A stretch of DNA of 64,000 nt from Strigamia acuminata. Taxonomy: Eukaryota. Of this stretch, positions 7,150 through 56,090 are shown one piece after another (position 1 is the stretch's first letter; every line of letters begins with the position of its first letter). The DNA lies in contig OX442314.1 in the NCBI GenBank assembly GCA_949358305.1, positions 27,776,001 to 27,840,000 on the forward strand. The letters run 5' to 3'. Position numbers and translations under genes: made by a program. The notes beneath the pieces are model-generated. The model was given only the letters and a program-made list of their open reading frames with translations, ran no database searches and was not told the DNA's origin.

Positions 7150-7689
7150 GAACCACTCATTACAATTCTCAGAAATCTCATGAATTATTTAAAATACACA
7201 GTAGTAATTACTTGTCAACTTTCACAAAACATCAATATAGCTGCAATGCGGTGTTTTTGAGTGGATCGAGTGCCACGTTTTCACCTCAGTGGAGTTTAAA
7301 ACCGTATGTATTTTTTCATGTCTATATTCAATTGATTATGAGCTTATGAGAGAGATATTCAATCATATTCGAGTTTTGCAAATCTGGATCAAATCATAAT
7401 AAAAAAAAAGCACTGGATTTGCAAAATAACATTCAAATTTATGTGAATCCCACTCTCTCAATACTATCAATAGTCAGTATATCAACAAGAATGTAATTAT
7501 CACACGGCTTTAAGTTCTGTTATTTTTTTAATGAAAGACGTCAGTTGCATTATTTTCGGATTGCTGTGACAACCGAAGCTACGACATTTGCCCGAATGCA
7601 CCGTAACGTGTTTTGAAAGGTTCCTGAATAAACCAATCAGAACGAGCGGTGTAGCATGGGTTGCCATCAAGCAGAGCAAAACTGGTATT

Positions 7690-8400
7690 GTGCTCCCCTA
7701 CCCAGGTAGTATTCCCTTCCACCTTGGCACAAGAGGTGCCCCCTTAGGACTCTGAATTTCATGGGCCCCTAATTCCAAAAATAAAATATTTTGACGGTAT
7801 GGTCTTACCCATGGTAACCTGGGGTGGAACGCATTCTCACGTAAAATAAGACAAGGACTCCAGATTGTTGGGTTGTTGTCCTTTAATCGTTGTCTAGGGA
7901 TTGGAGTCTCCAGTCTACCCACTTGTTGGCGAAGGCACGCCACACCAGCAACTGACCTGTAACACACAGGGAGGGATCCCCATGAATGACGTGGCCGGTT
8001 GGACATAACTATTCTGCTGTACTCACCTGTACAGCCCATGCAACTGCTTATGGAGGCTGTAGTGGTATTGACGTCTCACCACTAAGCGTCGCAGTGGTGA
8101 ATAGGGAGGAAAGCTGAGTCAGCACAGAGCACAACTGCTTTTGCTGGTTTCAGGACTTCACTTCACATGTCTGTCTCAGTTGAGACCCAGCGCTCTTTTC
8201 TCTCCCTGCACCATTCAGCTCCCTCCTTCTCCGTACTGGGTAATCCAACTCCGCGAGGAGGGGTGACCTTGGGGCTGTTGGGCAGAGTGTGGTAGTGCCG
8301 CAAGTCACACTCGGGTGACCAAGCGGCCACAAAATTAAGCAATTGCAAAGGGACACAGTCTATACTGTGCCGAAACTTAGAACTACGGGTGCATCCGGAG
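7690..8400 (-). repeat. GC-rich interspersed repeat (LINE 5'UTR/SINE-like)
   Basis: Near-identical copy at ~51545-52260. A diverged, oppositely oriented relative lies at ~10800-11186 plus ~34380-34610, split by the Gypsy insertion. Confidence 0.6.
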
Positions 8401-9250
8401 TAAGATAAAAGAATGTTTGGTTTGTTTATTTAGATGAGGTAGTGTGAGTTGAGAGTGAGGTATTGTTGTTGTTTGTATTTGCTGTGAGTATTGGTTTGTG
8501 ATCCCAGAATTATGAGATACTCTATGATGTAGGAACATAGATTCTAACTGCCAAAAAGTTTACTAAAATAATGAAATATGGATATACAAGTACTGCTATT
8601 GCTTCTATGTTGCTGTTGCTGTTTTTATAACTTAATATTAATATTTTATGTGTTTACACTTTCAAACCAAAATTATAAATTGATTTGGAAGAAACCTGTG
8701 AGGCATCATTTTGACAAGCTAGAATTAAAAAACACAAAGTCTTGGAGTTGTTATTCAGATTTTAGTTGGATTTTACGAGAATCATACACTGCAAAAAATT
8801 TTGGATTTCCAAAAATAAAGTTATTGGAAATTTAATGGTGAAATTGGATAAATTCCAGTTTGGAAATATAATAGAAAGGAAATGAGAAATATTTCATGGA
8901 AAGTTGAATTTCTGTAAATTTACAACACTGAAAGATGATGTTGTAAGTTTTTGTTAAATGTATGGAAAGCTAATGTAAATTAGGTTTGGAAATTTAAATT
9001 TATGTAAATTTTCAACACTGAAAGATGGTGTTGCAAATTATTGTAATTGTATGGAAAATTAAGTTGGAAACAAATTAATTTTTGAAGTTTTACAACCATA
9101 AACATTTATGGGAAAAACAAATTAAATTAAATAAAAATTTTAATCCAAAAAAACAAGTTTATTAATTTTTCTGATCATTTATGTACCATCGATTGTTAAA
9201 CTACATACAAGTTACGTACTTTTATCTTTTAACCTTGATTTGTAGACAAA

Positions 9251-12200
9251 ATGCCCGCTCCTAAAGCTTTGCGCATCCGTTGGATCCGTATCCGTACTCG
9301 CCAATTTGTGCGACAAGAATTGCAAACTTCACTGTCGGGCAAAGATAGTTTGCAATATATAAACAAAGTTGTCGAGAACACTGGAATAGTTCGTGCACTT
9401 TGGTTGGTTGGTTGGTTGGTTTGTTTCGGCATTTGCGGTTATCAAACATGGGAAAGATTACAATTCTACATGTCTGGACCCTACAAAGTTGAAATTGATT
9501 TTGTTCCAATTCAAGAAAGTAGATTCGCTGAAATTAGACTCATGGCGCTTGATACTCCTCTGATGTCGGAGTACTGGGACAAAATACCAGAAGGTAATTC
9601 AATTGATGATGTAAAAGAAAGAATGAGAGCTTGCAGCATCCCAGTGAGAGGAATCATTTCGAAGAAAGTCAAAGTTAAAAATTACACACACTTGTGGGAG
9701 CATTCCAATATTTCAGAAAATATGCAGCACTCTAAGTTGAGACAAGTAAGTAACCTTGGATAAATAAAAGAGCTATATGAAAAAAATTAGACTTTGACCG
9801 ATACCGGTATCGGTATTGGCTATCGGCCGATATTTCGGTATTCACCGATATCGGATCCGATATTTTTTGGCCTGGCCGACACCGATATTGCCACGTTACT
9901 AAAACGTTTTAGACTAAACGATACGTTTTAGAAACGCTTTTGAAGCAGTATAAATTATATACTGTTTCTAAAACATAAAATAAATTAATAAACGCAATTT
10001 TAATTTAATTTTTTTTTATTTTGGGGGGTGGTGGAGGGGGTCGGACATTTTAATTTTAATATCGGCGCAGGTATCGGTATCGGCCGATATTCGGTTGCCG
10101 ATTATCGGTATAGGCGATACTGCAAAAGATCAATATGGGTCAAAGTCTAAGAAAAATATTGTTGCCAGTATTTTGTTAATTACTACTTTTTCAGGGCAAA
10201 ACTGTATTACTTGAGACCAAGATGAGAAATGGCAATTACACAAACCAAGAGACAACAGTTGAAATAAAATACAAGAATTCTGTTTTCGGCAGTACACTGA
10301 TTGGGAAAACAGGTAAAATTAATATAATCATATTTTCCATTTATTATATAATCTTTTTTGGCTGTATTTTTTTCTTTTTTATTTTTTTTTAGATTTACTA
10401 CCGGTTCAAAAGAGAAAATTGCATATCCTTTTTAAAAAAAATGGAACCTGTGACGTACCAATGGTTGCAGTAAGTTCACTTTGTCAAATTGGGAATTCGT
10501 AATATGTGCAATATTCTTAAGCGCAATTATACCAATCACACTTAAGAATGGTGTTGCATAGTGCAAATATTCGTACCTGTGACGCGTACAAATTACGTAG
10601 GCATGCGTTTGCTCAATTAGCGGATGCCTAAATCGGCCGAAAATGTCGGCGCCGACTCGAAGTCGCTTTGCTTGCAATGTTGGCACTGACTTCTCCCAAT
10701 CATGCATTGACCGCTCCACACTGCAACGATCCGGGTCTTTCTATTTAATATTCGGAAGGAATAATAAATAATCACCTTTGAGATGCCGTATTGAACTTTG
10801 TTACCGCTTGGCCACCCAGGGTCACCTGCGTCACTGCCACACACCACCTTACAGCCCCAAAGTCATCCCCTTTATGGGTGGACTGACCTAGCCTAGGAGA
10901 GGAGGGAGCTGAGTGGTGTGGTGGAGACTCAAGTGTGAGAGGTGAGAGAGAGAGGTTGGTTTGTCTCTCTGTCTGTGACCGGTCGTGCTAGAGAGAGGTG
11001 AGTCTCTCTCCGACTGTGAGGGAGAGAGGAGCTGTGATCATCGAGGGGACAAGAAGTGTCCCGGGCTATCGTGGACTCTGCACTCCTTGCCATTCACCAC
11101 AGCAAAGCTCAGTACTATGGCGGTCTCCTTAGTGCACCCTCCATGAGTGGCTGCATGGGTCATGAGTGAGTACGACATGAATGTTATGTTTGTCGCGCCC
11201 CTACTTCGCTCTTGCAGACTCGTGGGTTGATTACTTAATTCGACTAACTCACTACCGCTTTGTTCGAGCGGTTTACCCAAAGAAATGATTACACAGATAT
11301 AAAAGGTAAAATATAATATAGATTTATTCTGTGGGACAATGTACAGATATATCTTATATATATATATGAAAGGTAAGTAAAAGGTAAATCGGAATGGGTG
11401 ATGGGAATGGAAAGGTAAAGGTAAGATGAAAGCTGGCTGGAATCGGCGAGGTCGTCTGTTGTCTCGTTCGTGTTTAAGATGGCGTCCTCGTTGTGGCAAC
11501 GTGATGTCGTCTTGGGCCGGCGTGGCAATATGGCGTCCTCGACTCGTCTCTGGCTGGTCCTTCGGGCTCACGCTGGTCAGGCGCGAGTGAATGCTTAGTT
11601 AAAAGGCTTACTTCGGTCTGTTGTCTAGGTTTTTGTGTGGTGTCCGGCGATCACACAGCGGCGGACTCTTCTGGCTCCCGGCGGTCACACAGCGGCGGGA
11701 ACGCTCGTCGTTGTTTTACTGCAGTTTAGGCTTGTGCGACCGTTTGTCTGCACAACTCGCTAAACTGGAGTGGTTTTTACTATTTCTAGCTGGTGTGCTA
11801 AAATAGTGTGGTAATCTTATCTCGCAGGTTACTCTGCGGAGTTTGACACTGACCAAACGTACTCACGGTAAATTGTCCTTTGTCCTTGGTCAATCCCAGT
11901 ATATTTACTTGGGCCTGATCTTGTAGGACGACGGGTTTTACGTGTGTTTCTCGTTTGATGGTTGTGTTGGTTCTGCCCGCTCAGTGCAAGGCACATTCCT
12001 TTGCACAAAGCGGGGTTGACAGGTGACCGGAATCACCCAATGGTGGGGTGGACGAGCCATCCCCACTCCCTCAGGGCAGACGCCTGTCCATTGACTAGAT
12101 GTCAATGCACTGAGGGAAGGGAGACGCGCTTGCGGCTCCCCTTACACTCGAAACGAGGTCACGAGAGAAACTCTTCGTTGACCCCGGTCCAGTCGGGTCA

Positions 12201-15200
12201 CAACACTTCCCCCTCCGAGCTCAGACCGTGGGGCTGAGCGATCACTTCTTTTTTGGGGGACCCGACACTGAGTCCGTCACCTGGGCGTAACTCACTCCAG
12301 GGACAGGCGGTTGAGTGCCGGGTGGCGCGGATAGATCGCCTACTAGCGCCGAGGACCGATCGCGGGGGTCCTCATGCTCCGTAATGAAACATAGTGCATG
12401 GCCGTCAACTGGCTCATGCGGGGCACGCGTCCTCTCGTGCAACCAAACGCTCGGGATGTAGGCGGAGAAGCCGGTGTTCGTATGCCGGATGGCATTGGCT
12501 TCCGCTGGCGTCACTGGCGCACGGTGGGCTCTCAGCAACCTCTGGTGGAAGATGAGGTCTTTAGTCTTCCGTATCTGGTTGTGAAGCCAGATGAAGACCG
12601 ATTTGCCTTTGTCCCGCTGTGCGAGGATAAACCTCCTGGTCGCCGTTGTCATCGAAAGATGGGGAAACTCGTTGATGATTCGCCCATAATAGTCTGGTGG
12701 AGGCGGTGCCGGCTTCGGCTTCTGGGTGGCCGCGGGAATCACGGCTTGCGTCGTTGTCGCCGCTCGGGCCGGTGGGGTCCCGGGCGGTGTCGGCTTCGTT
12801 TGCTCGACGGACCTGACGGGTGGCGTTCGGCACAGTAAGCGCTTTGGTTTACCCGCCACTTCGAACAGGGCGGGTCCTTGCGGGGACATCTTCGCAGGCA
12901 TCGGTGGCGGAATCGGAACTCCGCTCGTCGGCGAGATCATCATTTCCACTTCCTCTGCCGGTTCTTCCGTCTGGACGGTCAAGGCGCGCAGTTGTTGGGT
13001 GGGCGCCGCTGTCCAGGTGGCGGAGGTGTAACGAAACGCCGTGCTTCGTAACTTGTACCCTTCAAATTCTGGGTTTACCACATCCCTGGTTAGCTCGTAG
13101 CGAGTCAACACAGGGTCGGGCAGAATGGAGCTCCACTCTGCGAGGAGTGCACGGGGAACCTGTACACCCTCTCTGTCCACGGCAGACCATGCGGCCATCG
13201 ACTGACGCCCTTCTCCGAAGAGTGCTGGGGTTAGCAGCTGCATCATGACCTTGGTCAATGATAACTGTAGGCTGCGACGATTCACTGGATTCGATCGCTC
13301 TGAATCCTCAGTGAAGGCACGCGAGAGCTTACTCATCATCGTGATTGCCCATTCGATAAAATATCGCTGTGTTTGATCCACACCTCGCAAGGCAGGTGCG
13401 GAGACTCTTGGGTCTTCCATCACGAAACGAAACGCTGAGAGCTCGGAGATAGTCGGGTTGGCGGCTTCTCTCGCGAGTCGCGCTTCTTCGTCTCGCCTCT
13501 CGAAGAACAGGGCAGAGGAACCGGGTCGGGGTCGGCTCGGCCTGTAAATGTCGGTCAAATTGTTTCGACATTCCTGCAAAATGCTCTGTCCGACGGGGAG
13601 AAGGACTGAGCGGTCGGTGGGTAAATCCGGCGGATCGCTCGAATTCAGCAACGACGGCGGCGGCAGGTTCGGAGGCGGCTGCGTCTTGGTCGGCAGCGTT
13701 GGCGTCGGCAGCGGTGGTGGTGGCTGCGTCGGCGGTGGTGGCGTCTCCGTCGTCTGCACCCCAGTCATTGCGACTTGGGGCGCCGGGAGATGTTGTTCGG
13801 AGCTTGAGGGCTGTACGATGGCGGTTGGCATGCCATCGGGTCGCGGTCGCGAATTTATGTAGTCTGCGAGCCACCTTGCCACCTCGTGTGGGGTCACCAT
13901 CCCGTCGGTGACAACACCCATCTTCCTGGCGTGTTTCATAGTTGGATCGAAACGTGTCAGTTTTGTCCGCTTCATCTGGGTCAGAATCTCGCGAAGGTCC
14001 CGCGTATCTGCCGCTGGGACGCTTCGCTCACCTGACTGGCTACCACTTCGTCGACCCGCTCTTTTGGAGATGTAGGCGGGTTCGGGGATGGGACGGCCCC
14101 GAGCTTCGCACCTCGCGAAGTATCGCTCCTTGCGATCTCTTCTCCGCTGCTCGCGATGAGTCAGCGGACGTCTAGAAGTGCTGGGACGGGAGACTCGCTC
14201 TTCGTCGCCAGACATCCAAACCTCCTTGCACTCCTTACCGTCTTTAATCTGACGGTTTACGAAAATTCGCGGTCGGGAATACTGCGAAGGGTCACGCACC
14301 GTACTAGTGGATGGCCCAGCTTCGTTGCCTTCAGTCGTGTTTTGAATGACACGCTGCTTCTTGGTTGTCACCGGGGAACGCGACTGGCTGTTCCCGGCGC
14401 CTTTGGAGCGCTTGCGCTTCCGCGGGTAGCTGCTTTTGGGCCCCAAAATCCCCAGGTGGTGGAGCTGCCACATCTCGGCTTGGGACGTTAAAACTCCCAT
14501 CCGAGGTCTCCACTGGGGCGTACTCTCCCCCAATCGCAGCCTCTCAAACCACAGATGAATATCATCCGCGGTCATCCCCTCGTTTTGGAGGATGCGCTCG
14601 GCCACTGCCGTAGCGGTATCCACCAGCTGTTGCCTATACTGCTGATAGATGGCCTCACGGGCCTCTTCTGTCTCGGCTGCTTGCCACGCATACAGCACGT
14701 GTTCCTCCGCCGGATTGCCAGTGTACTGACTTGACAATCCGGGGTGGAAAATTGGCGATTTCGGGTCATCGTCACGAGCTAACTCTGTGGCGATGCCTTC
14801 GCGCATCCCCTCCGGGAACGTGTCCAGGAGCGTGCAGTCTCGTACCCAACGTCGGGCGATGCATCGGGAATGTAGTATTCGCAGGCGCCAAGGGTCGGCG
14901 TCCTCGCCGAAACATCGTCGGTAAAATTCGGGCAGCGCGCCTCGAAATATCCCGCCACGAGCGATGCAAGCGGGGTCTAATGGTCCCCATGTTCTACGTA
15001 ATGCCATCTGGAAGGATGGAGAAATAAACAATTAATAAAAAGTTAATATTAAATACGTAGATAAATGGTTGGTTTCGAGGGACGTTGCCGATACGTGCAG
15101 CCGTCCGTCGAGACCGATTCCTGTCTATCGGTGCAAACGTAGGACGAATTGTCCCTCGTCGGATAGAAAAAGAGAAGTCATCACGTAAAAAATCTGTCTC

Positions 15201-18200
15201 ATGTCCAAAACGCACAGCGAGACGGAATCGAGCCTTTAATCCGGATTTTTATCATCAGATTTTACTTCACATTAATTCTAACGTTAATTAGAACATTACT
15301 AATAATTAAATTAATAATTATCAGTCATTCGTAAAAAGAATTCGTCGGGTGTAAATTATTACTAAAAATGCACAATGAAAGTGCTTGTCGAAATTGTATT
15401 AAATAAATAAATCCAATAAAGAATTATTCCGAAGTCGGACTTTGTCTAATTTTTTTTTTACAAAAGTTAAAGTCAAATTAAATTTATCCAACACACCAAA
15501 AAATTCATCGTACGAATGTTAAGTTGCATCAATTCGATGCGTCAAATTACTTGTGGAGAAAATATTCTTTTTACAGAATATTCTCCCCTTGTCATAAAAT
15601 TATTTATGGCTCGAGCCCATTGTCTCGCTCGTGACTCATGTCATGAGGAATTTTCGAGACGCGAGGCGACGTGAAGTCTGCGATCGCATCCCGAAAACAA
15701 ATTAACAAGGAAAAAATACGATCGTGTGAGCGATCGCGGTTAATAATCAGTTATACGCTATTGCGAGTGCAAAGCACTCATGTCAGGTATTAGTCAAACA
15801 AAATTTCTTCTTCAGCAGCACGGAAATAATTCTCGTGCGCCAATGCCGACTTCTACCTGATCGGGTGGAACTTGGTTTACATCGTGGTCCCAATTTGCCT
15901 CATCCTCGTGCTCGATGGCAAGCACGTCGTTCTCTTCCTCGTCCATGGCGAGGAGCGCGCACAAAAAGCTCAATCACGATTAAAAAGGATGATAAAACTA
16001 TCTCAAAAACTCGGTAAAAAACTCGGTAAAAATGTTAAAAACGAGGATCACGCACGGACGCAGCGATCAGCTGTGAAAAGCGGAAGTCCGTGTGAACACG
16101 AGGTAATCGCGATGGATTCTGGGTAATATACTCCAGAACCCGGGTGTTTGAGACTAGTGCGCACTTACCCGTGCGCATGTTACGCTACGGGTCTCCTTGG
16201 TTTTCACTCCCGTGCGCGATTGCTGCTACGGTGTCTTTTGCACGCGGTTTCCGACCCGTGGCGACGATTTTCCTACGGGTCCCGCATTTCACGCCATCTC
16301 GTGACGTGAATTCGACCGATATCCGCTTTGTTGGACTTAGCGAAATTTTTGTAGAGTCTCGGATTTTGATGGCTAGCGCTGTCGATCGATCAATTTTTTT
16401 TTTTTTTTTTTTTTTTGTTTTTCAGCGTCGCCATCGACTCGTAACGTTTTTTACTCCTTTCCTACGACCTTTCCGTCTTTTATAAATGGATTACTTCTAC
16501 GGGGCCGCAGGTGATGAGTCGAGACAGGTACGACGTTTTTTGTTTTTAGTGTCTGTACCTCCTCATTATTGTTTTCTTTTTTATCCGTGTTTTTTGTGTT
16601 TGTTTCAGGAGTTTCTCCTGTTTCCCCCCCGACCAAAATTTGATCCGGAACGGATTCAACGATCTCGTTGACCGGAGGTGAAGGGGCGTCGAAATACTCC
16701 TCGTTGTCACTTGGCGGTGCTTTTTCCGACTCGCCAGCGAACATATCGACGATTTGGCCGTCAGTTTTTGACTTGACTTGGCCCTTGGCCCACATTTCTT
16801 GCGGGAATTCCGGAATGTACGGAGTTAACTCTCGTACTTGTATCGATTTATGCTCGGTATTGTCCTCGAGCTTACGTAATTTATACGCGTTACCGCTGTG
16901 ACGGTGACGACCACAACTCCCATTTAACAATGGTACCGGGAAGAGATCGCAATAAATAAACAGTGAATACAATACGAGATAAATACAAGACAGTTTATTG
17001 TTGGCAAACAATATGGATGAGCTAAATTATACATAGGACTAATGCCGACATTTGGCAAGTTAAATCAGCTATTAAACTATACAAAGAATTGGCCAACTGG
17101 CCCTAGAATAATATCACTACGGGTCTGGAATATGGGAGCGGTTTCCCCATCGCTCGACCTGATTATAGATGTCATCTTAAGCCGGATGGCTGTGTCCTGG
17201 AGTCCGATACGGCTTCGCTGGTTTCCTTGGTTCGCTGTGTAAACTATCGCACGTCGATAAATCGAATGATCTGAGCATTGCGGTTGACTTTGTCTGCACC
17301 GCCACAACTTTGGGAGGATATTGGTGTAAGTAAATGTATTCATTTACTTATCAATATTCCACTTATGAATTATATTTAATTCATATCGTTGTGAATTCTT
17401 ATTTAGATATTTCGGGAATAAGTTGTCGTCAACTTATCGGTTATATTGAGTTCAATATGAGATTAAGTCTTCTGACTTGATTTTGGTCCAACTGGTTGTC
17501 GAGTTTAAGTTTTGCTGTTATAAATAAAATGAAGATTAAGCTTCCCGTCGCAACACACAATTGCCATCGATTAGAATATACGCCTTGCCATGCAGAACGG
17601 TATCAAGCGTCCCCGGCGTCGCAGCACGGTCGTCCATCGAGTGGTTGACGGTACCACGTACACAGGGGTCGATAGCTCGCGGCTCCGCACAGCAGTTTTA
17701 TCTCTCGCGGTACTAATAATAGACCGACTGCTTTGGCATCGAATACCATGAGAATCAGCTTGCCAAACACTTGGTGCTACTCGTGGTTACTGTAAAACAG
17801 ACTGCTTTGGCACCATCAGGTGAAGGAACCGATTCTCAACAATACCGATGCTACTCGTGGTAACGGAATACGTTCATACCGAAAAAGACAACTTGGTCCT
17901 GTCCGGAGGATACTGAATTGCACAACGGCGGGTTCTCCTTCGGCGTCGCAACCGTAGACTGTAACATTTATGCAACATAATAATCCCAGCACTTCGACTT
18001 CAATTGCCGGCGGTGGCATGATTCTGTAGAATCATGCAACGGTTCTTTGCGAATAAATCAACAAAGAACCAAAAGGTTTTTTTACGTGAACAACGAATCA
18101 TATTTCTTAAGTAACAATACCAAACAGAAAATAATCAAACAGAGCTGCGGAATGGCCGATTGTTTGGGTTTATATAACCTGACTGGATTTAAGGATTAAT

Positions 18201-21200
18201 CCAGTCATCCAATTGGAACATGGGTTCCACGAATCCCTCCAATCCCGTATCACCGGAAGTGGATACGGAGGAGCATTTATGCAAATTATGCTAATCCTTG
18301 TTACAACCGGAACTGGATACCCAGGACCGGAAATGGGTTCCACCAATCAGATTGATCGGTTGACCGATTGATCGCTAAACATTCTGTCCCGCAGAAATGG
18401 AAGTTACATTGTATTTAACAATGTCAGATACTTAATATATATTTATATTAATATTTAACACAATTTATTCACTTGATTAAATATACGTTTATATTTAATC
18501 ATGAGGTTTTCAAGTTCGTATTCGAATTTATCGCTAATTGCGATCGCGCCATCTAGTGGCAATATGGAGCATTGACAAATGCGGGTTTTAGCAGACGAAT
18601 CTTCGTAATTATGCCGTGATACTTTAGTATCATGTGGAAATTAGTGTTTATTCTTAATAAACGAACATCTTTGTATTTGAAACATCATAAATGACTTTAT
18701 TCTAGACATTTATCAGTTTTACACAGAATATTGTAAAAATACCATCATATTGGCGCAACAGCGCTTTCTTGATAGAAAATAGGCATTTATAGCCATTGTA
18801 AACCGTCATACATCCCCCTTAATAACACAACTATATAATATTTTATAGAGTTTTCGTTATTCTCCTAATTAGCATAAATGCTATTTTCGGACTTGATGTA
18901 TCTTGGAGATACCGTGACTTCCAATTTCGAATTTGAGTTTACATAAACTAACTTGAATTATCTAAGTTCTGATTTTCTGCCGAAATAATCTTTTCTAATA
19001 GCCTAAATTCAAGTCCAGAATTTATTTCCAAGTCTTCTTTTTGAAGAAACTTTCGTCATACATAAAATCATCATTTGTGTTATCACAAAATATTTATTTC
19101 ATATGCCTAGTCAGATGTATCGCTATAAATATACAATAAATAGCTTTTAGATGATAAGAGTTGACAATTTAAGAATCAAAATGTCCCCCTTAATTGTCAT
19201 GACCGGAGTCACTTGGTATTCTTTGTACAATTGACTAATTTTAATTTAAACTAGTTGTCTTTTAATACTGTAATATTACTTTTCGAGAATTGTTAATTTT
19301 AACTTTATATTTTGTCCCCCTTTTCTTTAGAAGAGAGGTCATGATTTTTAGAAGAGGATTTTCTGTTTACACTATAATCGGGGAATCTTTGTGTATCATA
19401 TCATGTTAATCAACATGATTCTTTGCTAAATATTGAGCTCGCATATTTGCGAATTTCCGAGATCTCTCAGCCTGCTGTACTGATTTCTTTCGACGTTTTT
19501 CCTTTGGGCAGTTACATACAGTGTACTGACTTGGCAGTGTAAATGACCGTGACGACCCAACTTTTTGTTTTAGGTCATCTCTGGAAAACCATACATGAAT
19601 GGGACCCTCATTGGAAAACCATACGTGGAAAGGACCCATATTTGGAATTGTGAAATCCCGCAACAAACGAGGGGATCTATATTTGACTCTAAGTCGTGGA
19701 ACTGATGATTGGAAACCTGGGTTTTCAGTCAGTTTTTGAACATGTTGGTTTGTACTTGAAGTTTCTTCATCACCAGCTGGACTTGGTGACCGAAAACGCT
19801 TTTTTGAAGTTCTTAATTCCTCTCGTTGAGATGAATTATTCTGGATATTGCAGGGTTGCTTTCCAGACGCAAATTGTTGTATCTCCGTCAGATTGACGAC
19901 TGGGACGGGTTTTAGTCGTTGGTTACGGTATTGATTTCGAAATACGAATTGTTGCGCTTCGTTTATATTTTTAAATTCAGCTGAATTTAACTGGTATTGT
20001 TTACAATACTGTTCGAATTGATACCGGATCTCCCGTGGGTTAGTCAAAAAACTTTCTTTTTTAGGTTTAAAATCATTCTCATTATCGTGTTGGTAATACT
20101 TTTTCAAGGGAAAAGTTTGCTTGACTTTTTTTCGATTTGAAATGGGCGTTAGGTAGAATTGTCTTGGCTGGGGACTCTTCTTGGTAGACAAATCATACGT
20201 CCGCAAACATGAGTTTGTGATCGGCGATCGGGCACGTTGTTGTACGTTATTTGACTGCAAATGTTTGTTTGGAGTCCGAATATCTTTCCTTTGCGTTGAT
20301 ATTGGTGGCCCAAAACTTTTGTTTACGGTTCCCAATTCTTTTGATAGCGGTAGGTTAATCGACAGATTAAGGCTAGCCACATATCGTTGTGCTTCAGCTG
20401 GATTAGCATATCGAACTGAAATTAGCTGATCTCGATTGTAAACGAGTTTTAATTTGTTCTGAACAACCGACTGGTTAGTTAACGAACTCTCTGGATGAGA
20501 ATTATTAGGTTTATAATTCTCTTCCCCCTTATCTACCGAATTAGGTGGTTTAAACTTTTCTAACTTAGATCCCCTACTGGATGTTTGAAACATAGTATGA
20601 GAATCTTGATTCACTAAGTTTCGGCTGTATGTTTGTGGATTCCGTACTGGATCTTGATGTGAAGATTGAGATTGGGTACGATCTCGCCAGTTCCTAGCTT
20701 TTACATAGTCTGAAGCTTCGATTATATTTTTAAACTTGGTTTTATCCAGTCCATGACGATTACAATACAGAGTAAAATGATCGGGAATCTTTTCTGTTTG
20801 ATCGCCAAGTGGTACAGAACTTAAATTTAAGTTTGTCTGCTTATTATTTCCTTTTGGATCGATCATATTCAATGGTTTTTGAGCCATAAAAAAATTCAAA
20901 ATCTGACGATTTTAATTCTTTAATTTATAAAGAAGACGAATATAATACACTTTTCAACAAGAAACACTTCTAAACTTTACTTTTGACAAAATAAAATTAA
21001 ACTTCGCGTTTGTTTGACACGTGTTAGCTTTTGCAGGTTACACGGCACACAAAATTCGAATCGTGACTGAAATCGGGACGGCGTGGTCAAGATGACTCTG
21101 GAACACGTCTTCTGGTCTGGTCTGGATGCGAATGATCAGTATCTGATCTGGTCCTCCTTTAATAGCAGGGGGCTGGGGATCCCTAGATCTCCCAACTTCT

Positions 21201-24200
21201 GATTGGCGGATGTTAGTGTCGGCCAATGGTATAAAGGACGTTACATCTATTTAGTAGTTCTCTACTAAGTCCGTTCCCTTCGAGATTCAATTTTACCGAT
21301 AAAATAAAATTCCTTCGGGAAGACATTCGTAAAATATTGTATTTTTCAAATGAAAATAAAATAAACTTACTTCAATCTTCTTGAACTTTGGGATTTTTAC
21401 CAATCCAAATAATTAAATAACTTTTCTTCAAAAAATATTTTTCTTTGATTATTCCGTTTAGTGTGTAATATCATTACAACCACAGTTTTAATAAAGTTTT
21501 CTCAAACTCTCAATTTTTCTTATTCTTATTCAATTATCGTTCAAATAATCATTCCTTTGTAATTGAAATCTATTTTCGATTCCCAACATTGTGTATTCAT
21601 TTCCAATAGGAAGAATAATTTGACCAAGTCTTTACTTTTTCGGGTTTAAATTCCATTTTTCGAGTGTGAAAAAATAAATTTTCACCATCCATCTCCCCCT
21701 TTTTAACAAATTTTTTTAACAAATAAAAATTCGTTAAAATTCTTTAAATTTGTTTTGCGAGAAAAATTATCTAATTCTCTAATCTTCCAAAAGAAAATAT
21801 TCGAAATTTTACTTTAAACGATAAAGTTATTGGTACAAATGTGTACTTGTTTTTCGGGAGAAAACTATTCGACAATCCTTTAGACTTTTGGGTAAAAATT
21901 ATTCATCAAATCTTTCTTTTTTGATGACAATTGCTTTGATTTTTCGAAAGAAAATATCTAGCTAAATTCCACTTTTCCTGAGCGGACAATTGTTTTCACA
22001 ATTAGTTATTCCTTTGCGATATTTACGAAGGACGTGTCTTTGATTATTCGTTTTAATAATTTTCGTCCCCCTTATCTCTAATAACGAGATGTTTTTGCAG
22101 AGATCTTTTATCTTTTGAATGAAAGAATATTTAAATCTCAATTGTCGTAAATACCTTCATCTGCTGCAGCATTTCCTCAATTTGAACTTTTCAAATGAAA
22201 AGACAAATCTGGAGAACTTTCACTGTCAAACTTCTATTCCTATCGCGCCAAAATTCGTAATTCACTGGTTTGGAATTCCGTATAACACGTGACACAATAA
22301 CAGTATCGATGTCACAATTAAGCAGTTTACTACTCGGTCCGCGCGAGGACATGTAAATTACTTTTTTCCGATAAAAATAATTTTTCTTTGAAAAATATTT
22401 GAAATTGATTTTTCACAACTACTTTTGAATGAAATAAAATGAAGTTATTCCAACTTTTCGTTAATTGCTCACACATAACATTCCCTTTACTGTGGGATTT
22501 GCATCGAAATTCCATTTTTAAAGAACCTTTCTTTTACTTATCGCAAATAAAACATATTCAATCGTTTTTCTGATTAAACTTTAACACGTAAATTACGAAC
22601 GAAATATATGATGACATTCCATTAACCTTTAGGAAAATTGACTAAATTCTTAATTTTTAGAGAAAAATAATGTATCTAGAATCTTTCCTTTTCCGAATAA
22701 AATCTATGTTCAAAATAGAAGATAAATCTTGTGCAATTCTTAGTTTTTTCGAATGGAAAAATACAACTTTTCATCAGCGGTGATTTATTTGATTTTTCCG
22801 AAAGAAAAATAATTACTTTGAAACTTATTTTCTTCGTTTAAATCAGCTATCTGATTTTAAAGCTTCAATCCAATCAAAAAATATTCGCTCCGTAAATATT
22901 TCATGTGGCAAAGTTCATAGCCACAAATGGATTTGTTATTCCGGTTTTAAGAAATCATGTGGGAAAATGTCCGATTAGATTACTAAAAATATTCGTTGTT
23001 TTTCAAACAGCTAAATTTCATTTAGAAATTCTCAAAATTTGGGAGACCCAAATATCGTTGGAAACTTAAAACACTTGTTAAATTTCCGAAAGGAAAGATT
23101 GAATGAAATCCTTTTACTTTTCCGAGGGAAAGCGTTTATCGTGATTCGTAACTTTCAATGTAAAAAATACTATTCTATGTGGTCGGCAACTTCATTCGCC
23201 GCCATTTTATATTTTCTTAATTTCCATTGTCCCGAAGGAAAAAATGTACTTTTTGTGAAAATAGTTAATTCCTTCAAATAAAGGTAATATTCATTTCGAT
23301 TTGCAAATCTTTTCTGCGAAATGGAGTGTGTTGTTTTTCTCCAACAACTAAATTATCTTTGGTACCGATGGCAGTGGAAAAATTAGTTCGCGACACTTAA
23401 ATAAATCTCTACGAACCTTCTGTAACATTTCTCCGCTGTCTTTTATCTGTTGTCCGCCATAATTTCCAAGCATTCGTTCGCACCTTGCGTTGAAGGTTTG
23501 AGTAGCTTCCCTGCTGCGTTTGATACGGAGATCGACGCGTATTGCTATGGCGCGTGGTCGCTGGCTATCGGTGTCGACGTACAGTTACAAGAAACTTAAT
23601 TTCTTGTAAATATTTCCAAATAGTTGCGGTGTTTTCTTCGTTTTAACTTTTCAGGTGGAAAGATAAATTCGTAAGAAGTCCGCCTTCTAAACTTGTATGT
23701 TTTTAGCTTTTCGAAATAAAACAAACTTCGAAAAAAATATCTGTATTCTTATTTCACTCGAAACTTTTTTTTGATTTCTTATTTAAAATACTTCGTATTC
23801 CTTAAATTGTCGAACGAAAATAGTAAAGAGAGTTCACTAAACGTTTCCATTTCGTCAGTTTAACTTTTCACATGAAAATATAAACTGAAAATCTATTTGT
23901 CTGTTTTAACTAAAATTTTTTTGTTAATATCGGATTCAAGATTCGCTTTTGCAATTCGATCGAATTAATTTGCAACCTATTTCAGTGATCGTGTGATAGG
24001 TCTATAACTTCCGAAATTCCTAGTTAAAGGACAGTTTTGGTGTTTCTCAAGAAAATAAACATGGTTTGAAACTGGTCTGTTTTTTAACTAAATCTTTTAG
24101 TTAAATATTTATCTCAAAATTCACTTTTACAATTCTATCGAATTTAATTGCAACCTAATCTCGGTGGGACCTCCACGTGTGAGATTAGGTGGTAGTCTTT

Positions 24201-27200
24201 GAAATCCCTAAAATCTTCAAACGAAAATAATGAAGGAAAATCTACTACGTATTTCTATTTCATCAGTTTAACTTCTTCACATGGAAATATAAACTGAGAA
24301 TTTAATCTGTCTATTTTTAACTTAAATCTTTTAGTTAAATATTTATCTCCAATATTCACTGTTGCAATTCAATCGAATTTAATTGCAACCTAATCTCGGT
24401 GGGACCTCCACGTGTGAGATTAGGTGGTAGTCTTTGAAATCCCTAAAATCTTCAAACGAAAATAATGAAGGAAAATCTACTACGTATTTCTATTTCATCA
24501 GTTTAACTTCTTCACATGGAAATATAAACTGAGAATTTAATCTGTCTATTTTTAACTTAAATCTTTTAGTTAAATATTTATCTCCAATATTCACTGTTGC
24601 AATTCAATCGAATTTAATTGCAACCTAATCTCGGTGGGACCTCCACGTGTGACGGTGACGACCACAACTCCCATTTAACAATGGTACCGGGAAGAGATCG
24701 CAATAAATAAACAGTGAATACAATACGAGATAAATACAAGACAGTTTATTGTTGGCAAACAATATGGATGAGCTAAATTATACATAGGACTAATGCCGAC
24801 ATTTGGCAAGTTAAATCAGCTATTAAACTATACAAAGAATTGGCCAACTGGCCCTAGAATAATATCACTACGGGTCTGGAATATGGGAGCGGTTTCCCCA
24901 TCGCTCGACCTGATTATAGATGTCATCTTAAGCCGGATGGCTGTGTCCTGGAGTCCGATACGGCTTCGCTGGTTTCCTTGGTTCGCTGTGTAAACTATCG
25001 CACGTCGATAAATCGAATGATCTGAGCATTGCGGTTGACTTTGTCTGCACCGCCACAACTTTGGGAGGATATTGGTGTAAGTAAATGTATTCATTTACTT
25101 ATCAATATTCCACTTATGAATTATATTTAATTCATATCGTTGTGAATTCTTATTTAGATATTTCGGGAATAAGTTGTCGTCAACTTATCGGTTATATTGA
25201 GTTCAATATGAGATTAAGTCTTCTGACTTGATTTTGGTCCAACTGGTTGTCGAGTTTAAGTTTTGCTGTTATAAATAAAATGAAGATTAAGCTTCCCGTC
25301 GCAACACACAATTGCCATCGATTAGAATATACGCCTTGCCATGCAGAACGGTATCAAGCGTCCCCGGCGTCGCAGCACGGTCGTCCATCGAGTGGTTGAC
25401 GGTACCACGTACACAGGGGTCGATAGCTCGCGGCTCCGCACAGCAGTTTTATCTCTCGCGGTACTAATAATAGACCGACTGCTTTGGCATCGAATACCAT
25501 GAGAATCAGCTTGCCAAACACTTGGTGCTACTCGTGGTTACTGTAAAACAGACTGCTTTGGCACCATCAGGTGAAGGAACCGATTCTCAACAATACCGAT
25601 GCTACTCGTGGTAACGGAATACGTTCATACCGAAAAAGACAACTTGGTCCTGTCCGGAGGATACTGAATTGCACAACGGCGGGTTCTCCTTCGGCGTCGC
25701 AACCGTAGACTGTAACATTTATGCAACATAATAATCCCAGCACTTCGACTTCAATTGCCGGCGGTGGCATGATTCTGTAGAATCATGCAACGGTTCTTTG
25801 CGAATAAATCAACAAAGAACCAAAAGGTTTTTTTACGTGAACAACGAATCATATTTCTTAAGTAACAATACCAAACAGAAAATAATCAAACAGAGCTGCG
25901 GAATGGCCGATTGTTTGGGTTTATATAACCTGACTGGATTTAAGGATTAATCCAGTCATCCAATTGGAACATGGGTTCCACGAATCCCTCCAATCCCGTA
26001 TCACCGGAAGTGGATACGGAGGAGCATTTATGCAAATTATGCTAATCCTTGTTACAACCGGAACTGGATACCCAGGACCGGAAATGGGTTCCACCAATCA
26101 GATTGATCGGTTGACCGATTGATCGCTAAACATTCTGTCCCGCAGAAATGGAAGTTACATTGTATTTAACAATGTCAGATACTTAATATATATTTATATT
26201 AATATTTAACACAATTTATTCACTTGATTAAATATACGTTTATATTTAATCATGAGGTTTTCAAGTTCGTATTCGAATTTATCGCTAATTGCGATCGCGC
26301 CATCTAGTGGCAATATGGAGCATTGACAAATGCGGGTTTTAGCAGACGAATCTTCGTAATTATGCCGTGATACTTTAGTATCATGTGGAAATTAGTGTTT
26401 ATTCTTAATAAACGAACATCTTTGTATTTGAAACATCATAAATGACTTTATTCTAGACATTTATCAGTTTTACACAGAATATTGTAAAAATACCATCATA
26501 TTGGCGCAACAGCGCTTTCTTGATAGAAAATAGGCATTTATAGCCATTGTAAACCGTCATACCGCCATGCTTGCCGATGATCACATACGGACCATCTCTC
26601 TTGTCGGCCAAGCTGGCGGTGATTCCTCTCGCTGCATTTGAGAGGGTGTGTGCATCTTTCCACACCAAATCATTGATCTCGAAATTCACGAATTTTCCAC
26701 CGCTTTTATCTTGTAAAATGCGGTCGCGCATGTTAAAAATGTGCGCCATCATATGTTTGTATGTGCTCGAAATTGTTTGCTCCAATTTATACACATACTC
26801 ATGTGGTTTCTCTGGGTCCACCACATTTACCGACTCTGCCACTCGCGGGTCCCAAGGCACTCGTAGCTCTCGGGCGAAGTTGAGGTAGGCCGGAGAAAAA
26901 TCTCTCGTCCTCGAGACTGTTGTTCGTATGCTGAACGCGATCTCCCTCAAGTATTCATCCCACCGATTGTGGATGTCAGTGAATATACTTAATGCATATT
27001 TGATATCCCTGTTGAGTCGCTCAACGGGATTTGTTCTGGGGTTGTAGGTCGAAGTATGTGACGCCACAATCCCGAACTTCTCACAAAATTTACCCCAAAT
27101 TTTCGAGATAAATTGGGGTCCGTTATCGGATATTATTTTACGTGGAAATCCGTAACGTAACGCCGCGTCGTAGATACATTCAACGATTTTCTCTGCTGAA

Positions 27201-30200
27201 GGTCTAGCGACGGCGTACAACTCGGGCCAACGAGTCGCCACGTCCATTATAACGATAATGTACGCATTTTTATTTCCCGTAACGGGTTTTGGGCCCATCA
27301 CATCGACAGTTAAACAATCAAAAGGCGCGTAAGGCCCTAAGAAAATAGTTTCGAATGGTGATTTACTCCTCGGCTTGCACGCTTGACATCGCTGACATTG
27401 GTGGACAAAAAGAGCAATATCTTTTTTCATCCCTGTCCAGTGAAAAAGCTGTGTAGCACGATAGAGTGTTCTGCTTACTCCCGCATGGCTTGCAAGCGGG
27501 TGCCCGTGTAACAACCACAGCACGCGACCGATTAAGGAAGCAGGTATTACTACCTTTACTGCGGTGTCCGATTCACTCAAGTCATCTTGGTGATTTGGGT
27601 GATGTTTCACCAAAAGGCCGTCATCCAATAGATAATCTATGGATTCGTGTGCATAACGACGCTTCTGCCTTCTGGTTAAGTTGGGCGGATATTTTCCTGT
27701 CAGTACGAATCTAGCTCTGTCCTGACATTTTTTGTTTAATTTTTGTTGCACAATTATTTCCTCCCTTGTTGGGGGATTGCTTTTCATTTGCTTGCCGACA
27801 CGAGCGTGGAAGGCGCTTAGAAGCGAGTCATTTATTCTCTGCTCTAGCTTAAATTCCTTCTTTGCATTTGGGTAATTGTCAGCAGCTGGTTGGTATAACC
27901 GCGTCCAGAATCCACAGAATTTTACGTCTGCCGGAGACGCGGTGGGAATTTCATTCATCTTCCTTAAATCCCAACGGTGACAACTCGTAGGGCAATAAAT
28001 GATGCGGGAGTCATCCTCGCCATCATCGTCAGCGTCGATTGGATCTGACACTGGTGCCCGTGACAGAGCGTCAGCCACGACGTTATATTTGCCGGGCTTG
28101 TATTGAATGGTCAAGTCGCATGCCATCAGTTCTAACTGCCATCTGGCTAGTCGACCGGCTGGCTCCTTTAATTTCATCAGCCATTGTAACGCTTGATGAT
28201 CTGTGTGGACCACAAATTTGGTATATTCGAGATAATCTCTGAATTTCCTTATGGCCCACACAACGGCCAAACACTCCAACTCGGTGGCATTGTAATTTTT
28301 TTCAGCGCCTTGGAGTTTGCGACTTATAAACATGCACGGCAGGTCTTGTTCGACTCCGTCGCGCACGTGTGTTTGAAGCAACGCGGCTCCCAACCCAACT
28401 CTGCTGGCGTCCGTATGTAATATGAACGGCCGGTTTAGGTCGGGTAGAGGCATTACGCCGACTTTCGTCAGCATCCTCTTTATCGCATTAAATGCGATGT
28501 TGCACTCATTTGACCATACAAATTCGTTTTCATTCTTCAGGAGGTCGGTAACTGGGGCTGCCACTTCAGCTAGACCCGGTAGCAACCTGCCGAAGAAGTT
28601 TATCATTCCCATAAACCGTTGGACACCTTTAACGTCCTCGGGTGGTGGGAAACGATTAATCGCATCGATTTTTTCGGGGCCAATAGCTAAACCATTGAAT
28701 CCAATGCGATAACCCAGGAAGGCAAGCTCCTTTCGACAGAACTTGCTCTTGCCCGGGTGAACGTGTAACCCAGCTTTTGCCAGCCGGGTGAGCACTTGGT
28801 CGATGTGCTCAATGTGCTCTTTGAATGTTTTGGAGGCAATAACTATGTCATCTAGGTATGCCCACACAAACTGATGCAGGATATCACCCAATACGCTTTC
28901 GATTAGTCTCTGAAAGGTACTGGGAGCGTTCACTAAACCAAATGGCATGACGTTGAACATCAACCGTCCAATTGGCGAGTAAAATGCTGTTTTTATCTTA
29001 TCCTCTGGCCTCATCTCAACTTGCCAGTATCCCTTCGACAGATCCATCGTTGTAACCCAAGAAAAGGGGCTAAGCTCTCTCAAAATGGATTCGATAGACG
29101 GCATCTGTATGGGATCTATCTCTGTCACCGCGTTTAATGGGCGGTAATCAATGCATAGGCGTGGGTCCGAGCCCGGGCGCATCACGAGCACAACTCGCGT
29201 CGCGTATTCTCCCTGGGCCTCGGAGACAATGCCACTGTCTAGCATTTCTTGGCACATTTTTTGCACTATTTCACGTTTTTGCGGGTTCATTCCCTTATAC
29301 GCAACTCGTATAGGTTTATTATCCGTCAATTTAATTTCGTGAATAGCCCTATTCGTTCGGCCCGGTTTTTTCGACAGGATCCCCTCATATTTAAGTAGGA
29401 CCCTTCGTAGAGCTGCCGCTTCGTTTAATTCTAAAGCGGCGTCGGCGACAAGCGTTTCCACTACATTGTCCCGTTGCAATTCTGTTACGAATGCTTTAAA
29501 ATCGTAGTCTTGAACGAATTTCTTTAGGCCTTTCTCCCACTGTGTCTTGTCGGCCGCTTCTTTTACAAGAGCTGGTGGCACGACAATTGCGGGTCTTTCC
29601 TTGTCATTTCTGATATAATTCCAAGATTTCGTTATTGGATTTGGTTGTATTTCCATTGACGCCATGAGGTCTAAGCCCAACAGAAAAATTCTGTCGCATG
29701 TGGGCAGGACCAGGAAAGGGTGCTGTTCTACCCCTCCGAGCCACTCCATGGTCAATAATATAAATCCTTTTGGACGCGCCATTCCGTTGGCGGTTTTTAG
29801 ACGTATATTTTTATTAACGCCTTTTATCTTATCGGCGAGACCCAATGATGCTACTATGTCTTCGGAAACGAACGAGCGATCTGCTCCCGAGTCTAATAGT
29901 CCCATAATTTTTTCGCGTTCTATTGTCATGGGCAGCATACATAGGCGGCTGGTGTATTCGACCGCCACGTTGCACATGAAAACACGAAATTCTTCTGTCT
30001 CTTCGACTACTTGAGGTAATTCTTCAAGCAGTAGGTTCGGTTCTTCCGCCTCAGCGTTTGCGGTGATTACCTGCAAAGCGTTGTTGGCCCTGTCTTGAAT
30101 TTGGGCGTTGGCTATGTCACTACCCATTTCTTTGACTGGTGGCGGCTTATCGAACCCTTTGTTAAACCCCTTCTTCTTCATGAATGGCGCAGACGGTCGA

Positions 30201-33200
30201 GAAGTTATTTCTTCGCCGCCTGCGCTGACTCGTTTTTTGACTCGTTTTTTGCCATGGCGAGTTTAATCTCTGCCATCTGCTTCATTATCGCGTCAAACTT
30301 CGCGTCTTCTTTCGCTGTTCTTGGGCACTCTTTGGAGTAGTGGCCCGGTTGGTTACACTTGAAACAGCGAATATTTGATTTGTCTCTTGGGGCTTCAGTC
30401 GATTTTTTCTTTTCAGGGTCTGCTTTCGACGGTGGCGTGTAATTTTTTCGAAAATACTTCGGAATTCGGCCGGCATTTGGTTTTAACCTGGCGCGAAATT
30501 CTTCTACCGCTCTATCTCGATGGATGAGATGTACTAGCGGTCCTTCCTCATCGCAACCCGTTGATAAGGTATCGCGATAGCTTCGTATTTCTTCGTCCGT
30601 CGAATAATCGTCTTTTTCTTCTTTTTCGTCTGATTTTCCGGCATCTTGTCCGGCTTCCTCCCCCTCCTTGACCTCCTCCAGTGTCGCTTGCATGGCTGAC
30701 GCTGTCGGTGCCTTTTTAGGGGCGGCCAAAGGGTTGGAAGGCAGCGTGAATGTCAGTTTATTTTTTATTTGCAAACCAACGCTAGCTTCTGCCAGCTCCA
30801 TTATACCGCTAAGATATTCAGTAGGGCGCATAATCTTATCTGTCCCCCCATATCTTTCCGCACTCAACTTGAGACGGTTTGCGGTTGCTGCTTTCTCCGC
30901 TTCTGGTAAAGCGGAATAATACCTCTTCTCGATATCTATCGTGTTCTCGAACAGGAAGGCGCTCATCTCCTCGTAGCTGCCTCCTGTCGGTGCCCTTTCT
31001 TCAAGTAACACCCGTTGCGAGTACTCCGACAAACCGCCGAGGAAGAAAAGGTTGAATCCCGTGGCATGAAATTCCATCGGGGCCTTTTCAAACAACAATC
31101 TGGCGCGAATGTCGTAATCCATTATGGTTTCACCAGGCATCTGGCGAAAACCTCGCATCTTTCGGCTCACCTCTTCGGGTGTCTCGCCGTAGCGCAGGTC
31201 GAATCTCATTAAAAAGTCGTCCCAATTGACGCCTTTCAATCCTTGGTACCACTCACGTGCCGAGCCTGTCATTAGCTCGACAATACCGTGGGTGAGCATG
31301 TCTCCTACGGTGGCTTTAGTGGCAGTCTTAATTCGAATTACTTCGTCAAGGAAGCGATCTCCCGCTTTCCATGACCCGTCGAAACGGTTCTGAATATAAA
31401 ACTGCCACCTAATATTCCCGGTAATACTCATGGTGTCACGTCGGGAGACAGCGTATTTTTTCTTTACGCGGTCGCCAGTGCTACGATTACGATCGTTTCG
31501 TTTGCTCAGATCGATTCCCTCGGCTTTTAACGAGCCAAGTAGTGCTCTTCCAAGCTCTCCCATCGTATACTGCCGACCCGTCGAATCGGTAAACGCGCTT
31601 TGTCGGGGAAGGTCCTGAAACTCCTCCCGTCGGTGGTCGCTATTTTCCGATCGACGTCGTTTCTCTCTATCACGCGGAGAGTTGGATCTCTTCCGGCGAT
31701 TACTTGATTTATCCTTTCGTCTGTCGTCGTTGGATGAGGGGTCGGAGCTGGGGTCGGGGGACGGTGAGCGGCGTGGCGGGTTGCGCCGTGAAGAGTTTGA
31801 CTCTTTCCGGCCCCTACGACGGTCGTCACGTTCCTTTTCCCTGCGTTCATCGCGTTCTCTTTCCCTTCGTCTTTCTCCGGAACCTCTCTCCGAATCGTGA
31901 TGACTGGGTGCATTTGACTCCAGTCCATCTGACGACGAATCACTATTTCCGTAGTGATAATATTTCGGTCTTTCATCGCGTTTGCCTTCTTCTCGCGAAA
32001 AGGTGCGATCATGCGATTGTCTCCTTGACGACTCGTCGTCTTCAAGGATGGGCACTGGTTGTTGCCACTCAGTCCCTTGCGGATTATCATGCTGTTGGCT
32101 TGTGAGAGCTTGCTCTTCATTTCGCTTAGCATTATTAGCGTTGATTAACCGCGTTATCGCATTATTTGTGGCTGAATCGAGAGCTTGCATGCGGGGCCGA
32201 GTTTGTTGTTCTCTGGCCGACGCATCTCTTTTGCGCGGAGTAGCTGGCGTTGCCCTCTCCGGCTGGGGTTTGGGTTTGGCCTTCGGCGTGCGCTTTGGGT
32301 CTCCCTCTAGGCTCTCGTCGGACAGCTCGGATGAACTGACCTCTGGTTTGCGAACGGATTTCGGGTCATCTCGTCGCAATCTGGCCATAAATGCTCGCTC
32401 TGCTTCTTGTTGCGAGTGGAAAGCATATCGATGTGCTCTCAGGGCTCGGTCAACTATTTCTACCTCCTCGGGAGTAGTCGGATTGGGCTGGGTTCTGCCG
32501 TACTCGAGAGCTTGCGCTTCTCTTTCCGCCAGCTTCCTCCGTCTCTCGCGAATGGCTTGTCGAGCCTCATTCTCTGCATCCGCTTCAAATTGAGCGGAAT
32601 CAACCAATTGTTGAGCGTATGCACCTTCAACAATGGTGATTTGTGGGGATACACTGTGCGCTTTTAAAGCTGCACGTACGATCTGTAACGTTTCGTACAC
32701 GGTAATCTTCCCCGTCGGAAGGGTGTATCTCACTCCCTCCGCTTGTGCCAATTGCATCGCATCAATCAAGGTGCCCGAGACGCTGTAAGGCTGGCTTGAA
32801 ACACGCTTGACAGAGGACGAGTTGGACTTGTGCCCTTCAGACATTACCGAGGCTGGTCGACTGTGCGTAATTGGCGTGTTTAGTGCTGAATTCGCTGTCG
32901 TGTCGGACGCCATCCTTTGTATCGAAGACGTCGCTCTCGGATCGCTCACCTCGGTATCGTGCGTTAGGCGAGGCGATTGGTTACGGGATAAAACCTCGTT
33001 TCCGCTCGTCTCGCCGTCACGATTGGGACGCGGCGGTTTGGGGTGGGACGGATCCTCACTCCGCTCCGTCTCGTCTAATCGCTGCCTCGTTTCGGCGTGA
33101 GACGGGTGCGATGCCTCCGAAGCGCTTCGTCGGTCTGGCTTGGCCTTGCGGCGTTTTTGCCTAGACTCGTGCGCTGAGGCTTTGGGCAAAGGACCTCCCG

Positions 33201-55848: not shown

Positions 55849-56090
55849 ACTTTACTGGTTGAGAAATATGTGTTTAACTGTTTGGAAATTTAATATACGA
55901 GTATCATGCTACGAAAAGTCGTTTGGAAACGGTTGCATTCAGTGTTGGAAAGTCATTGGAAATTTGATGTTTGTACAATTTGGAATATATAACTTTCAGG
56001 TTTGGAAATTTCGCATTTCAGTTATATTTCCAAAATATTTTATGGACAAAAATCTAATTTTTTTTGCAGTAATACAGACTGTATCGATAT

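Follow-up and report, generated by a model that had tools for sequence, protein, structure and literature searches.

How does a long terminal repeat (LTR) retroelement that encodes neither gag nor pol come to carry an intact gene of its own? The question is raised by a 64,000-nt stretch of the Strigamia acuminata genome (assembly GCA_949358305.1, contig OX442314.1, positions 27,776,001 to 27,840,000 of the forward strand), hereafter the window, whose numbering is used throughout. The window contains, on the minus strand at 16897-26561, a 9,665-bp non-autonomous LTR element that is described here in minus-strand orientation and holds a single open reading frame (ORF) of 493 codons at 19406-20887. 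A first-pass annotation had proposed a young element without gag or pol that bears its own orphan gene. Non-autonomous LTR elements normally retain cis signals or gag only, and such elements are already known in animals; the combination of missing gag-pol with one conserved non-Gag ORF is absent from the literature searched. With moderate confidence we favor an account in which the element is mobilized in trans by the proteins of an unseen Gypsy family with the same LTR and Gln primer, and in which the ORF is the retained third (accessory) gene of that lineage, predicted to encode a nuclear nucleic-acid-binding protein favoring the element's expression or copying.

The element is a very young LTR element. 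Its 3' LTR (16897-18810; 5'-TATGACGG...CCGTCACA-3') and 5' LTR (24648-26561), each 1,914 nt on the minus strand, show 0 differences over 1,914 positions in the pairwise comparison that the first-pass annotation had asked for, which bears out its claim of youth. The cis signals it reported are likewise present: a 4-bp target-site duplication (TSD), CCGC, at 16893-16896 and again at 26562-26565; a polypurine tract (PPT), AAGGGGGA, at 18813-18820 (minus strand), separated from the 3' LTR by 2 nt (TG); and an 18-nt primer-binding site (PBS), TGGAGGTCCCACCGAGAT, at 24628-24645 (minus strand), adjoining the 5' LTR with 2 nt (CG) between. A 5-bp TSD (ACCGC) is formally possible and was rejected, because the surrounding Gypsy (TGTT) and a related solo LTR (ACTT) both have 4-bp duplications. 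Going by known tRNA 3' ends, we take the PBS to be of tRNA-Gln type and that of the surrounding Gypsy to be of tRNA-Pro type. A candidate poly(A) signal, AATAAA, lies at 16999 inside the 3' LTR by motif match, and the 5' LTR holds TATATAAA at 25927 with CCAAT boxes upstream at 25964-26098. Three features had escaped the annotation: the ends of the LTRs, a tandem array bearing the PBS, and a set of repeats in the encoded protein. The LTRs end in TA..CA, a non-canonical TA start, with a terminal inverted repeat that matches at 7 of 8 positions. Among plant elements, LTRs with TACA ends form a recognised minority (PMC9804982).

The tandem array (24081-24652, minus strand) has a period of 235 bp, 2.4 copies and a 98% match. 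Each unit begins TCACA-CG-PBS, copying the layout of the LTR end, and a decayed further unit lies at about 23800-24000. Because the PBS falls within this array, the window holds three exact copies of it against 0.02 expected, the extra ones at 24393-24410 and 24158-24175. The two LTRs are identical, and therefore this copy would have been primed at the outer PBS. Folding of the PBS-region RNA gave a z of -2.5 for a low-probability structure, weak support for a hairpin that masks the inner copies. Open-access literature, taken without supplements, yielded nothing on tandem PBS arrays, which is not proof of absence.

No trace of gag or pol accompanies these signals. Upstream of the ORF, an AT-rich leader (21300-24050, minus strand; 30% GC) is non-coding by profile and tblastn searches. 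Across 16897-19405 and 20920-24647, all 12 of the 12 stop-read-through frames were without a Pfam match at E<=1, and tblastn with the window's own Gag and Pol proteins returned only noise, none better than E 0.4 except the read-through of pol itself into the LTR. An Rfam scan of 16400-27000 gave 0 matches. Degenerate gag/pol across 21300-23800 in a single-copy element, the outcome that the annotation had set against its own proposal, is rejected: the Pfam and tblastn searches were empty, and the contigs are deep and multi-copy. The locus thus combines two LTRs, a PBS, a PPT and a TSD with the lack of a functional gag-pol. It also transposed in its present form, because it has a TSD and identical LTRs, an uninterrupted host site exists, and its interior is represented by deep, near-identical contigs. 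The TSD, the uninterrupted site and the deep contigs also rule out an assembly artefact.

The uninterrupted site (place 16896), found in contigs of two sequencing runs (X1 and X3), belongs to a host Gypsy at 11191-34375 on the minus strand (1,015-nt LTRs with 4 differences, TG..CA ends, TSD TGTT). Its gag lies at 30205-33318 and its pol at 26453-30262, both on the minus strand, with the tail of pol at 16451-16896. The annotation placed the insertion in the integrase of this Gypsy, and the cut does fall there, at about codon 1233 of pol, 3' of the rve core (978-1075) and shortly after the GPY motif. The ends of the element match the geometry of the window's Gypsies in the 2-nt spacer before the PBS, in GGGGGA plus 2 nt before the 3' LTR (GGAGGGGGA plus 2 nt in the host Gypsy) and in the 4-bp TSD. 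This TSD differs from the 5-bp TSD of an element in the window with 309-nt LTRs; the link to Gypsy is circumstantial. The host Gypsy was rejected as helper, since its LTR is unrelated to that of the element (global score -306 against a shuffled mean of -301) and its primer is another; the second Gypsy in the window, at 59299, is likewise Pro-primed. A solo LTR at 53515-55848 (minus strand; TG..CA ends, the same terminal repeat, TSD ACTT), in contrast, represents a related, diverged family (score 527 against 311 +/- 19 in 30 shuffles). Because the host LTR is unrelated, both window Gypsies have Pro-type PBSs and this solo LTR is related, the helper is assigned to a third family, as the annotation had supposed.

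The interior of the element was found in three runs (X1, X2 and X3) from one organism and two studies. The main interior contigs have a depth of approximately 9,150 in X1, 23,400 in X2 and 260 in X3. Relative to the shallowest variant contigs, 8-10 of which were picked by hand in each run, these depths correspond to ratios of 92-136, 81-194 and 4-10, respectively. The resulting estimate for the X1/X2 study is about 100 copies that are near-identical (0-1 differences per piece), against fewer than about 10 copies, about 1% diverged, in the X3 study. Relatives that have the same LTR but not this interior are abundant: in X1 a second LTR haplotype equals the element's own in depth (17831: 19,783 of 39,788), and in X3, where ORF contigs have depths of 207-352, no other LTR haplotype occurs (6,059 of 6,059). 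These relatives are candidate helpers, though they may be solo LTRs. Run X6, with the same species label, gave only short LTR-like pieces at 85-95% identity, and run X4, from another organism, gave no match to the element; neither is evidence either way. A contig joint, 16916/21488, links the LTR end to the leader in X1, X2 and X3 (one side has only 20 letters) and possibly marks a nested or rearranged copy.

The ORF (minus strand; ATG at 20887, stop at 19406) exceeds chance, its stop-free frame running for 501 codons against a longest of 150 in 300 shuffles of the interior. The encoded protein is basic (isoelectric point 10.1, with a KRRKK patch at 464) and consists mostly of low-complexity linkers. 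These separate three repeats of about 25 residues, at amino acids 38-62 (20702-20776), 146-170 (20378-20452) and 291-315 (19943-20017), all on the minus strand; 3 of 6 segment pairs reach p 0.001-0.005 in 1,000 shuffles. The repeat is modeled as a two-helix unit, with a helix-turn-helix core in repeat 3, at a predicted local distance difference test (pLDDT) score of about 84. It may resemble SAP/HeH-type or RNase H1 hybrid-binding modules, none of which matched in Pfam at E<=10. An Env protein was rejected for want of a signal peptide and a membrane segment, the highest 19-residue hydropathy being 0.75. In X1 a variant haplotype is deep at repeat 1 (4,378 of 14,259), and loose ends occur at 20703 in X1, X2 and X3, which together point to a family of related ORFs that share repeat 1.

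The ORF is intact, and none of the searches gave a homolog. Family profiles found no match in Pfam, PHROGs or NCBIfam, and no homolog was found among 2,734 word-sharing candidates of 271-863 amino acids, among 1.84 billion representatives, in the ESM Atlas, or in metagenome and viral contigs, where PBS patterns also numbered 0. A profile of the three repeats found no homolog in the PDB. Orphan status is nonetheless weak evidence, and the annotation's "own orphan gene" loses force, because in this poorly sampled lineage the reverse transcriptase-RNase H of the host Gypsy reaches a best identity of only 46% among the 120 matches listed, and because ORF3 of the host Gypsy is equally an orphan. 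That gene (12242-15007, minus strand) encodes a proline-rich, basic protein of 921 amino acids, with an acceptor-like CCAG directly 5' of its ATG, for which family, protein-collection and hydropathy searches found no family match, no homolog and no membrane segment. Like it, the ORF of the element is the last gene before the PPT, and both are basic, non-membrane orphans with an acceptor-like site 5' of the ATG.

A gene in this position could have another source, namely a fast-evolving host gene captured as a retrocopy by template switching, whether useful to the element or not, and we regard such an origin as unlikely. LTR-mediated retrocopies, documented across animals (PMC5131818), are likewise intronless coding sequences between LTRs, and the same route seems to have operated in the window. 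There, at 42547-45024, a second non-autonomous LTR element has identical 309-nt TG..CA LTRs and a 5-bp TSD (GGCCA). Between the LTRs, a Tektin-like sequence (43140-44774), apparently without introns, has a single in-frame stop (43887-43889) and ends in a CAA/AAC-rich tract. It has the look of a host-gene retrocopy made very recently by the LTR-mediated route, beside a decayed BEL/Pao element. The GC content at third codon positions of the ORF (0.31) is far under that of the host Gypsy genes (0.50-0.64), and low-depth pieces (X1 record 6, depth 168) that lack gaps at 19% divergence could derive from a parent gene, their match being confined to part of the ORF. Low-depth diverged pieces, however, extend to the leader and the 3' untranslated region, as expected of old element copies, and related ORF haplotypes in X1 reach depths of 4,378, 1,526 and 672, where the shallowest contigs have about 77, a pattern that a mobile family would give. 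In contrast to known LTR-mediated retrocopies, the ORF has no identified parent gene, with no host homolog among the 1.84 billion representatives, and its relatives look multi-copy.

Expression of the ORF is likely to need a subgenomic RNA, because 59 ATGs precede it on the genomic RNA, counted from the TATA box of the LTR. None of the 59 falls in the last 253 nt, which follow a TATA-like box (0 against about 3 expected, p ~0.05 by hand estimate), and no ATG lies between 21140 and the start of the ORF. The motifs reported in the first pass are present as matches: CCAAT at 21206, its complement at 21227 and TATTAAA at 21164, which form a candidate internal promoter (21158-21227, minus strand), and a candidate 78-nt GT..AG intron (20980-20903, minus strand) whose acceptor stands 15 nt before the ATG. 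In X1, X2 and X3 alike, contig depth over a promoter-like bin, 20990-21244, exceeds that of the bin before it, and X6 has a short match there, which suggests that the bin is shared with related elements.

Selection on the reading frame was assessed in diverged pieces with at least 8 differences, duplicates across runs having been dropped, among which 10 ORF and 12 leader pieces were listed. Gaps and substitutions stand at 10/236 in the ORF and at 110/269 in the leader (Fisher p 1e-16). Because gaps are far fewer in the ORF, its frame looks selected, in that the indels of diverged copies avoid it. Within the ORF the listed pieces show a 3-nt insertion, a +1/-1 pair, two skips (66 and 39 nt) and a 96-for-17 replacement, after which an ATG is still in frame. 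The alternative, that the ORF is a neutral leftover, intact only through very recent expansion from one copy, gains from the near-identity of most copies (0-1 differences in the X1 main contigs), among which intactness is uninformative, and from the 40 listed ORF substitutions, of which 26 are replacement, 14 silent and 0 stop. We judge it improbable, in that pieces with 12-19% divergence show no gap over 200-300 nt, in that the 1-nt deletions of the listed pieces sit just upstream of the ATG (20889, 20891) with none inside the ORF, and in that the last 253 nt before it are free of ATGs. Since the interior codes for protein, by an ORF beyond chance in which gaps are suppressed, the annotation's "LARD-type" label (large retrotransposon derivative, LARD) does not hold, although the element exceeds the 4-kb length criterion.

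The weakest alternative, a Gag-only element of the Bhikhari, TR-GAG or MaLR type with a Gag diverged past sequence detection, finds a precedent in Bhikhari, whose single 617-amino-acid ORF was uncharacterised until structure prediction revealed Gag (PMC12067270), and is compatible with the sense orientation, the basic C-terminus and a full-length model so low in confidence (pLDDT 40.8) that a fold is possible, but is slightly less probable still, because the ORF has no Gag Pfam match or zinc knuckle whereas both window Gypsy Gags match zf-CCHC, resembles neither of those Gags, begins about 3.75 kb from the PBS and behind 59 ATGs whereas the two Gypsies start gag about 70 and 90 nt after it, and has predicted helices in short pairs, between which lie 80-120 low-complexity residues, so that a continuous capsid domain would not fit.

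Several observations weigh against a selected accessory gene that is mobilized by a Gypsy partner. The AT-rich leader exaggerates the gap contrast, which comes from the longest listed pieces only, taken at differing likeness cut-offs (85 and 80); in two of the ORF pieces, 6 and 2 gaps are possibly frame-breaking. Amino-acid constraint is weak, with a ratio of nonsynonymous to synonymous rates (dN/dS) of about 0.5 (p 0.036, without transition-bias correction) on 40 of the 137 listed differences and of about 0.76 on the first 15 listed substitutions, and the lack of stops among 40 substitutions (2.3 expected) falls short of significance. Between the end of the ORF and the LTR lie 596 nt, compared with 37 nt for host ORF3, and since the two ORFs show no similarity, the likeness to ORF3 is one of position and character. 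Copy numbers are contig depth ratios rather than copy counts, and the window itself may derive from X1/X2. No contig piece from these runs has gag-pol behind the element's LTR or PBS, and the relatives with its LTR could be solo LTRs or belong to other non-autonomous families. Finally, no fold or family match backs DNA binding: fold searches with the repeat model gave a best VIA Z of 3.4 and Foldseek E values of 5.5 and 1.3, generic two-helix matches at noise level. These empty searches argue neither for a new fold nor for the lack of a known one.

The account of a trans-mobilized element with an accessory gene can be stated as a sequence of steps. A three-ORF ancestor would have lost gag-pol, leaving the accessory gene in its position before the LTR. 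Full-length RNA from the 5' LTR would be packaged and primed at the LTR-adjacent PBS, and the partner's proteins would reverse-transcribe and integrate it, with removal of 2 nt from each end, a 4-bp duplication and tolerance of the TA end. The ORF may be read from a subgenomic RNA that either starts at the internal promoter (CCAAT/TATA) or is spliced, with 20903 as its acceptor. Least certain is the proposed action of the protein; tentatively, binding of DNA or chromatin by the three predicted two-helix repeats may increase transcription or weaken silencing. We think it unlikely that the strongest form of the proposal holds, namely that this is, in an animal, a satellite-type retroelement without gag/pol that keeps a selected regulatory gene of a new repeat-domain family, the protein of which boosts the element's transcription or counters silencing, and that drove a population-specific burst of approximately 10- to 25-fold; such a non-autonomous element would be more than a passenger.

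Among known systems, LARDs recall the element in exceeding 4 kb, in their long LTRs, PBS and PPT, in the lack of gag/pol and in their dependence on a partner, but the present element has an intact, apparently frame-selected 493-codon ORF and an animal host; recent work treats LARD-like elements as a continuum (PMC13570524). In the mosquito Culex quinquefasciatus, 38 families of non-autonomous LTR elements are described, of which the cqUNK elements share with the present one an animal host, the lack of a traceable master, internal tandem repeats and, in one family, a Gln PBS; they are described without coding sequence and have LTRs of 208-315 bp in the rows listed, as against 1,914 bp and a tandem unit that includes the PBS here (PMC3286476). 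Zebrafish Bhikhari/crestin, like plant TR-GAG and mammalian MaLR, is young, strain-variable and non-autonomous with a single long ORF, but in Bhikhari (PMC12067270) and TR-GAG that ORF is Gag, whereas here there is no evidence of Gag and the ORF stands before the 3' LTR with promoter-like signals of its own. Closest in position are the ORF3s of rotifer Gypsy elements (PMC5408684), plant aORFs (accessory ORFs) and TRP28 of Retand (PMC7264820, PMC11963269), extra genes between pol and the 3' LTR that are often orphans. A nuclear or DNA-binding role has been proposed for such genes, and defective Retand clusters retain TRP28 (PMC7264820, PMC11963269). No sequence relation to them is shown by the ORF; moreover, the defective Retand clusters in the table keep some gag/pol domains and have TRP28 in antisense, whereas here gag-pol is all gone and the ORF is in sense. 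The open-access search listed no animal non-autonomous LTR element that retains only a non-Gag accessory ORF, which again is not proof of absence, as family tables in supplements may include such cases. As background, LARDs also feature a conserved internal RNA structure, and the ORF of MaLR, too, is Gag.

The surroundings are rich in other elements. The solo LTR at 53515-55848 encloses a miniature inverted-repeat transposable element of about 770 bp, with 297-bp inverted arms at 54619-54915 and 55088-55384. The second Gypsy (59299-64000, plus strand) extends beyond the window; it has what we take to be a Pro-type PBS, an 869-amino-acid Gag, and a pol 46% identical to that of the host Gypsy across 513 amino acids. 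Downstream of a BEL/Pao pol (2955-6356), the segments 6680-10261 and 50568-58134 are about 95% identical and 43.9-48 kb apart; they are possibly very long LTRs, the second copy being split by a 4.3-kb stretch that contains the solo LTR. An ORF at 35731-36537 (plus strand) resembles an amiloride-sensitive sodium channel (PF00858) and is surrounded by transposons. This channel fragment, Tektin and the BEL/Pao elements point to an animal as the source of the window.

Should the ORF prove to be a cryptic Gag or to have been captured from the host, the case reverts to known kinds. If the account of a retained accessory gene is true, the element presents such a gene isolated from gag-pol, and would allow the role of the unexplained extra ORFs in Gypsy elements to be tested cleanly. 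The two studies of this species, in which copy numbers apparently differ, would in turn provide a natural contrast for asking whether the gene drives amplification.

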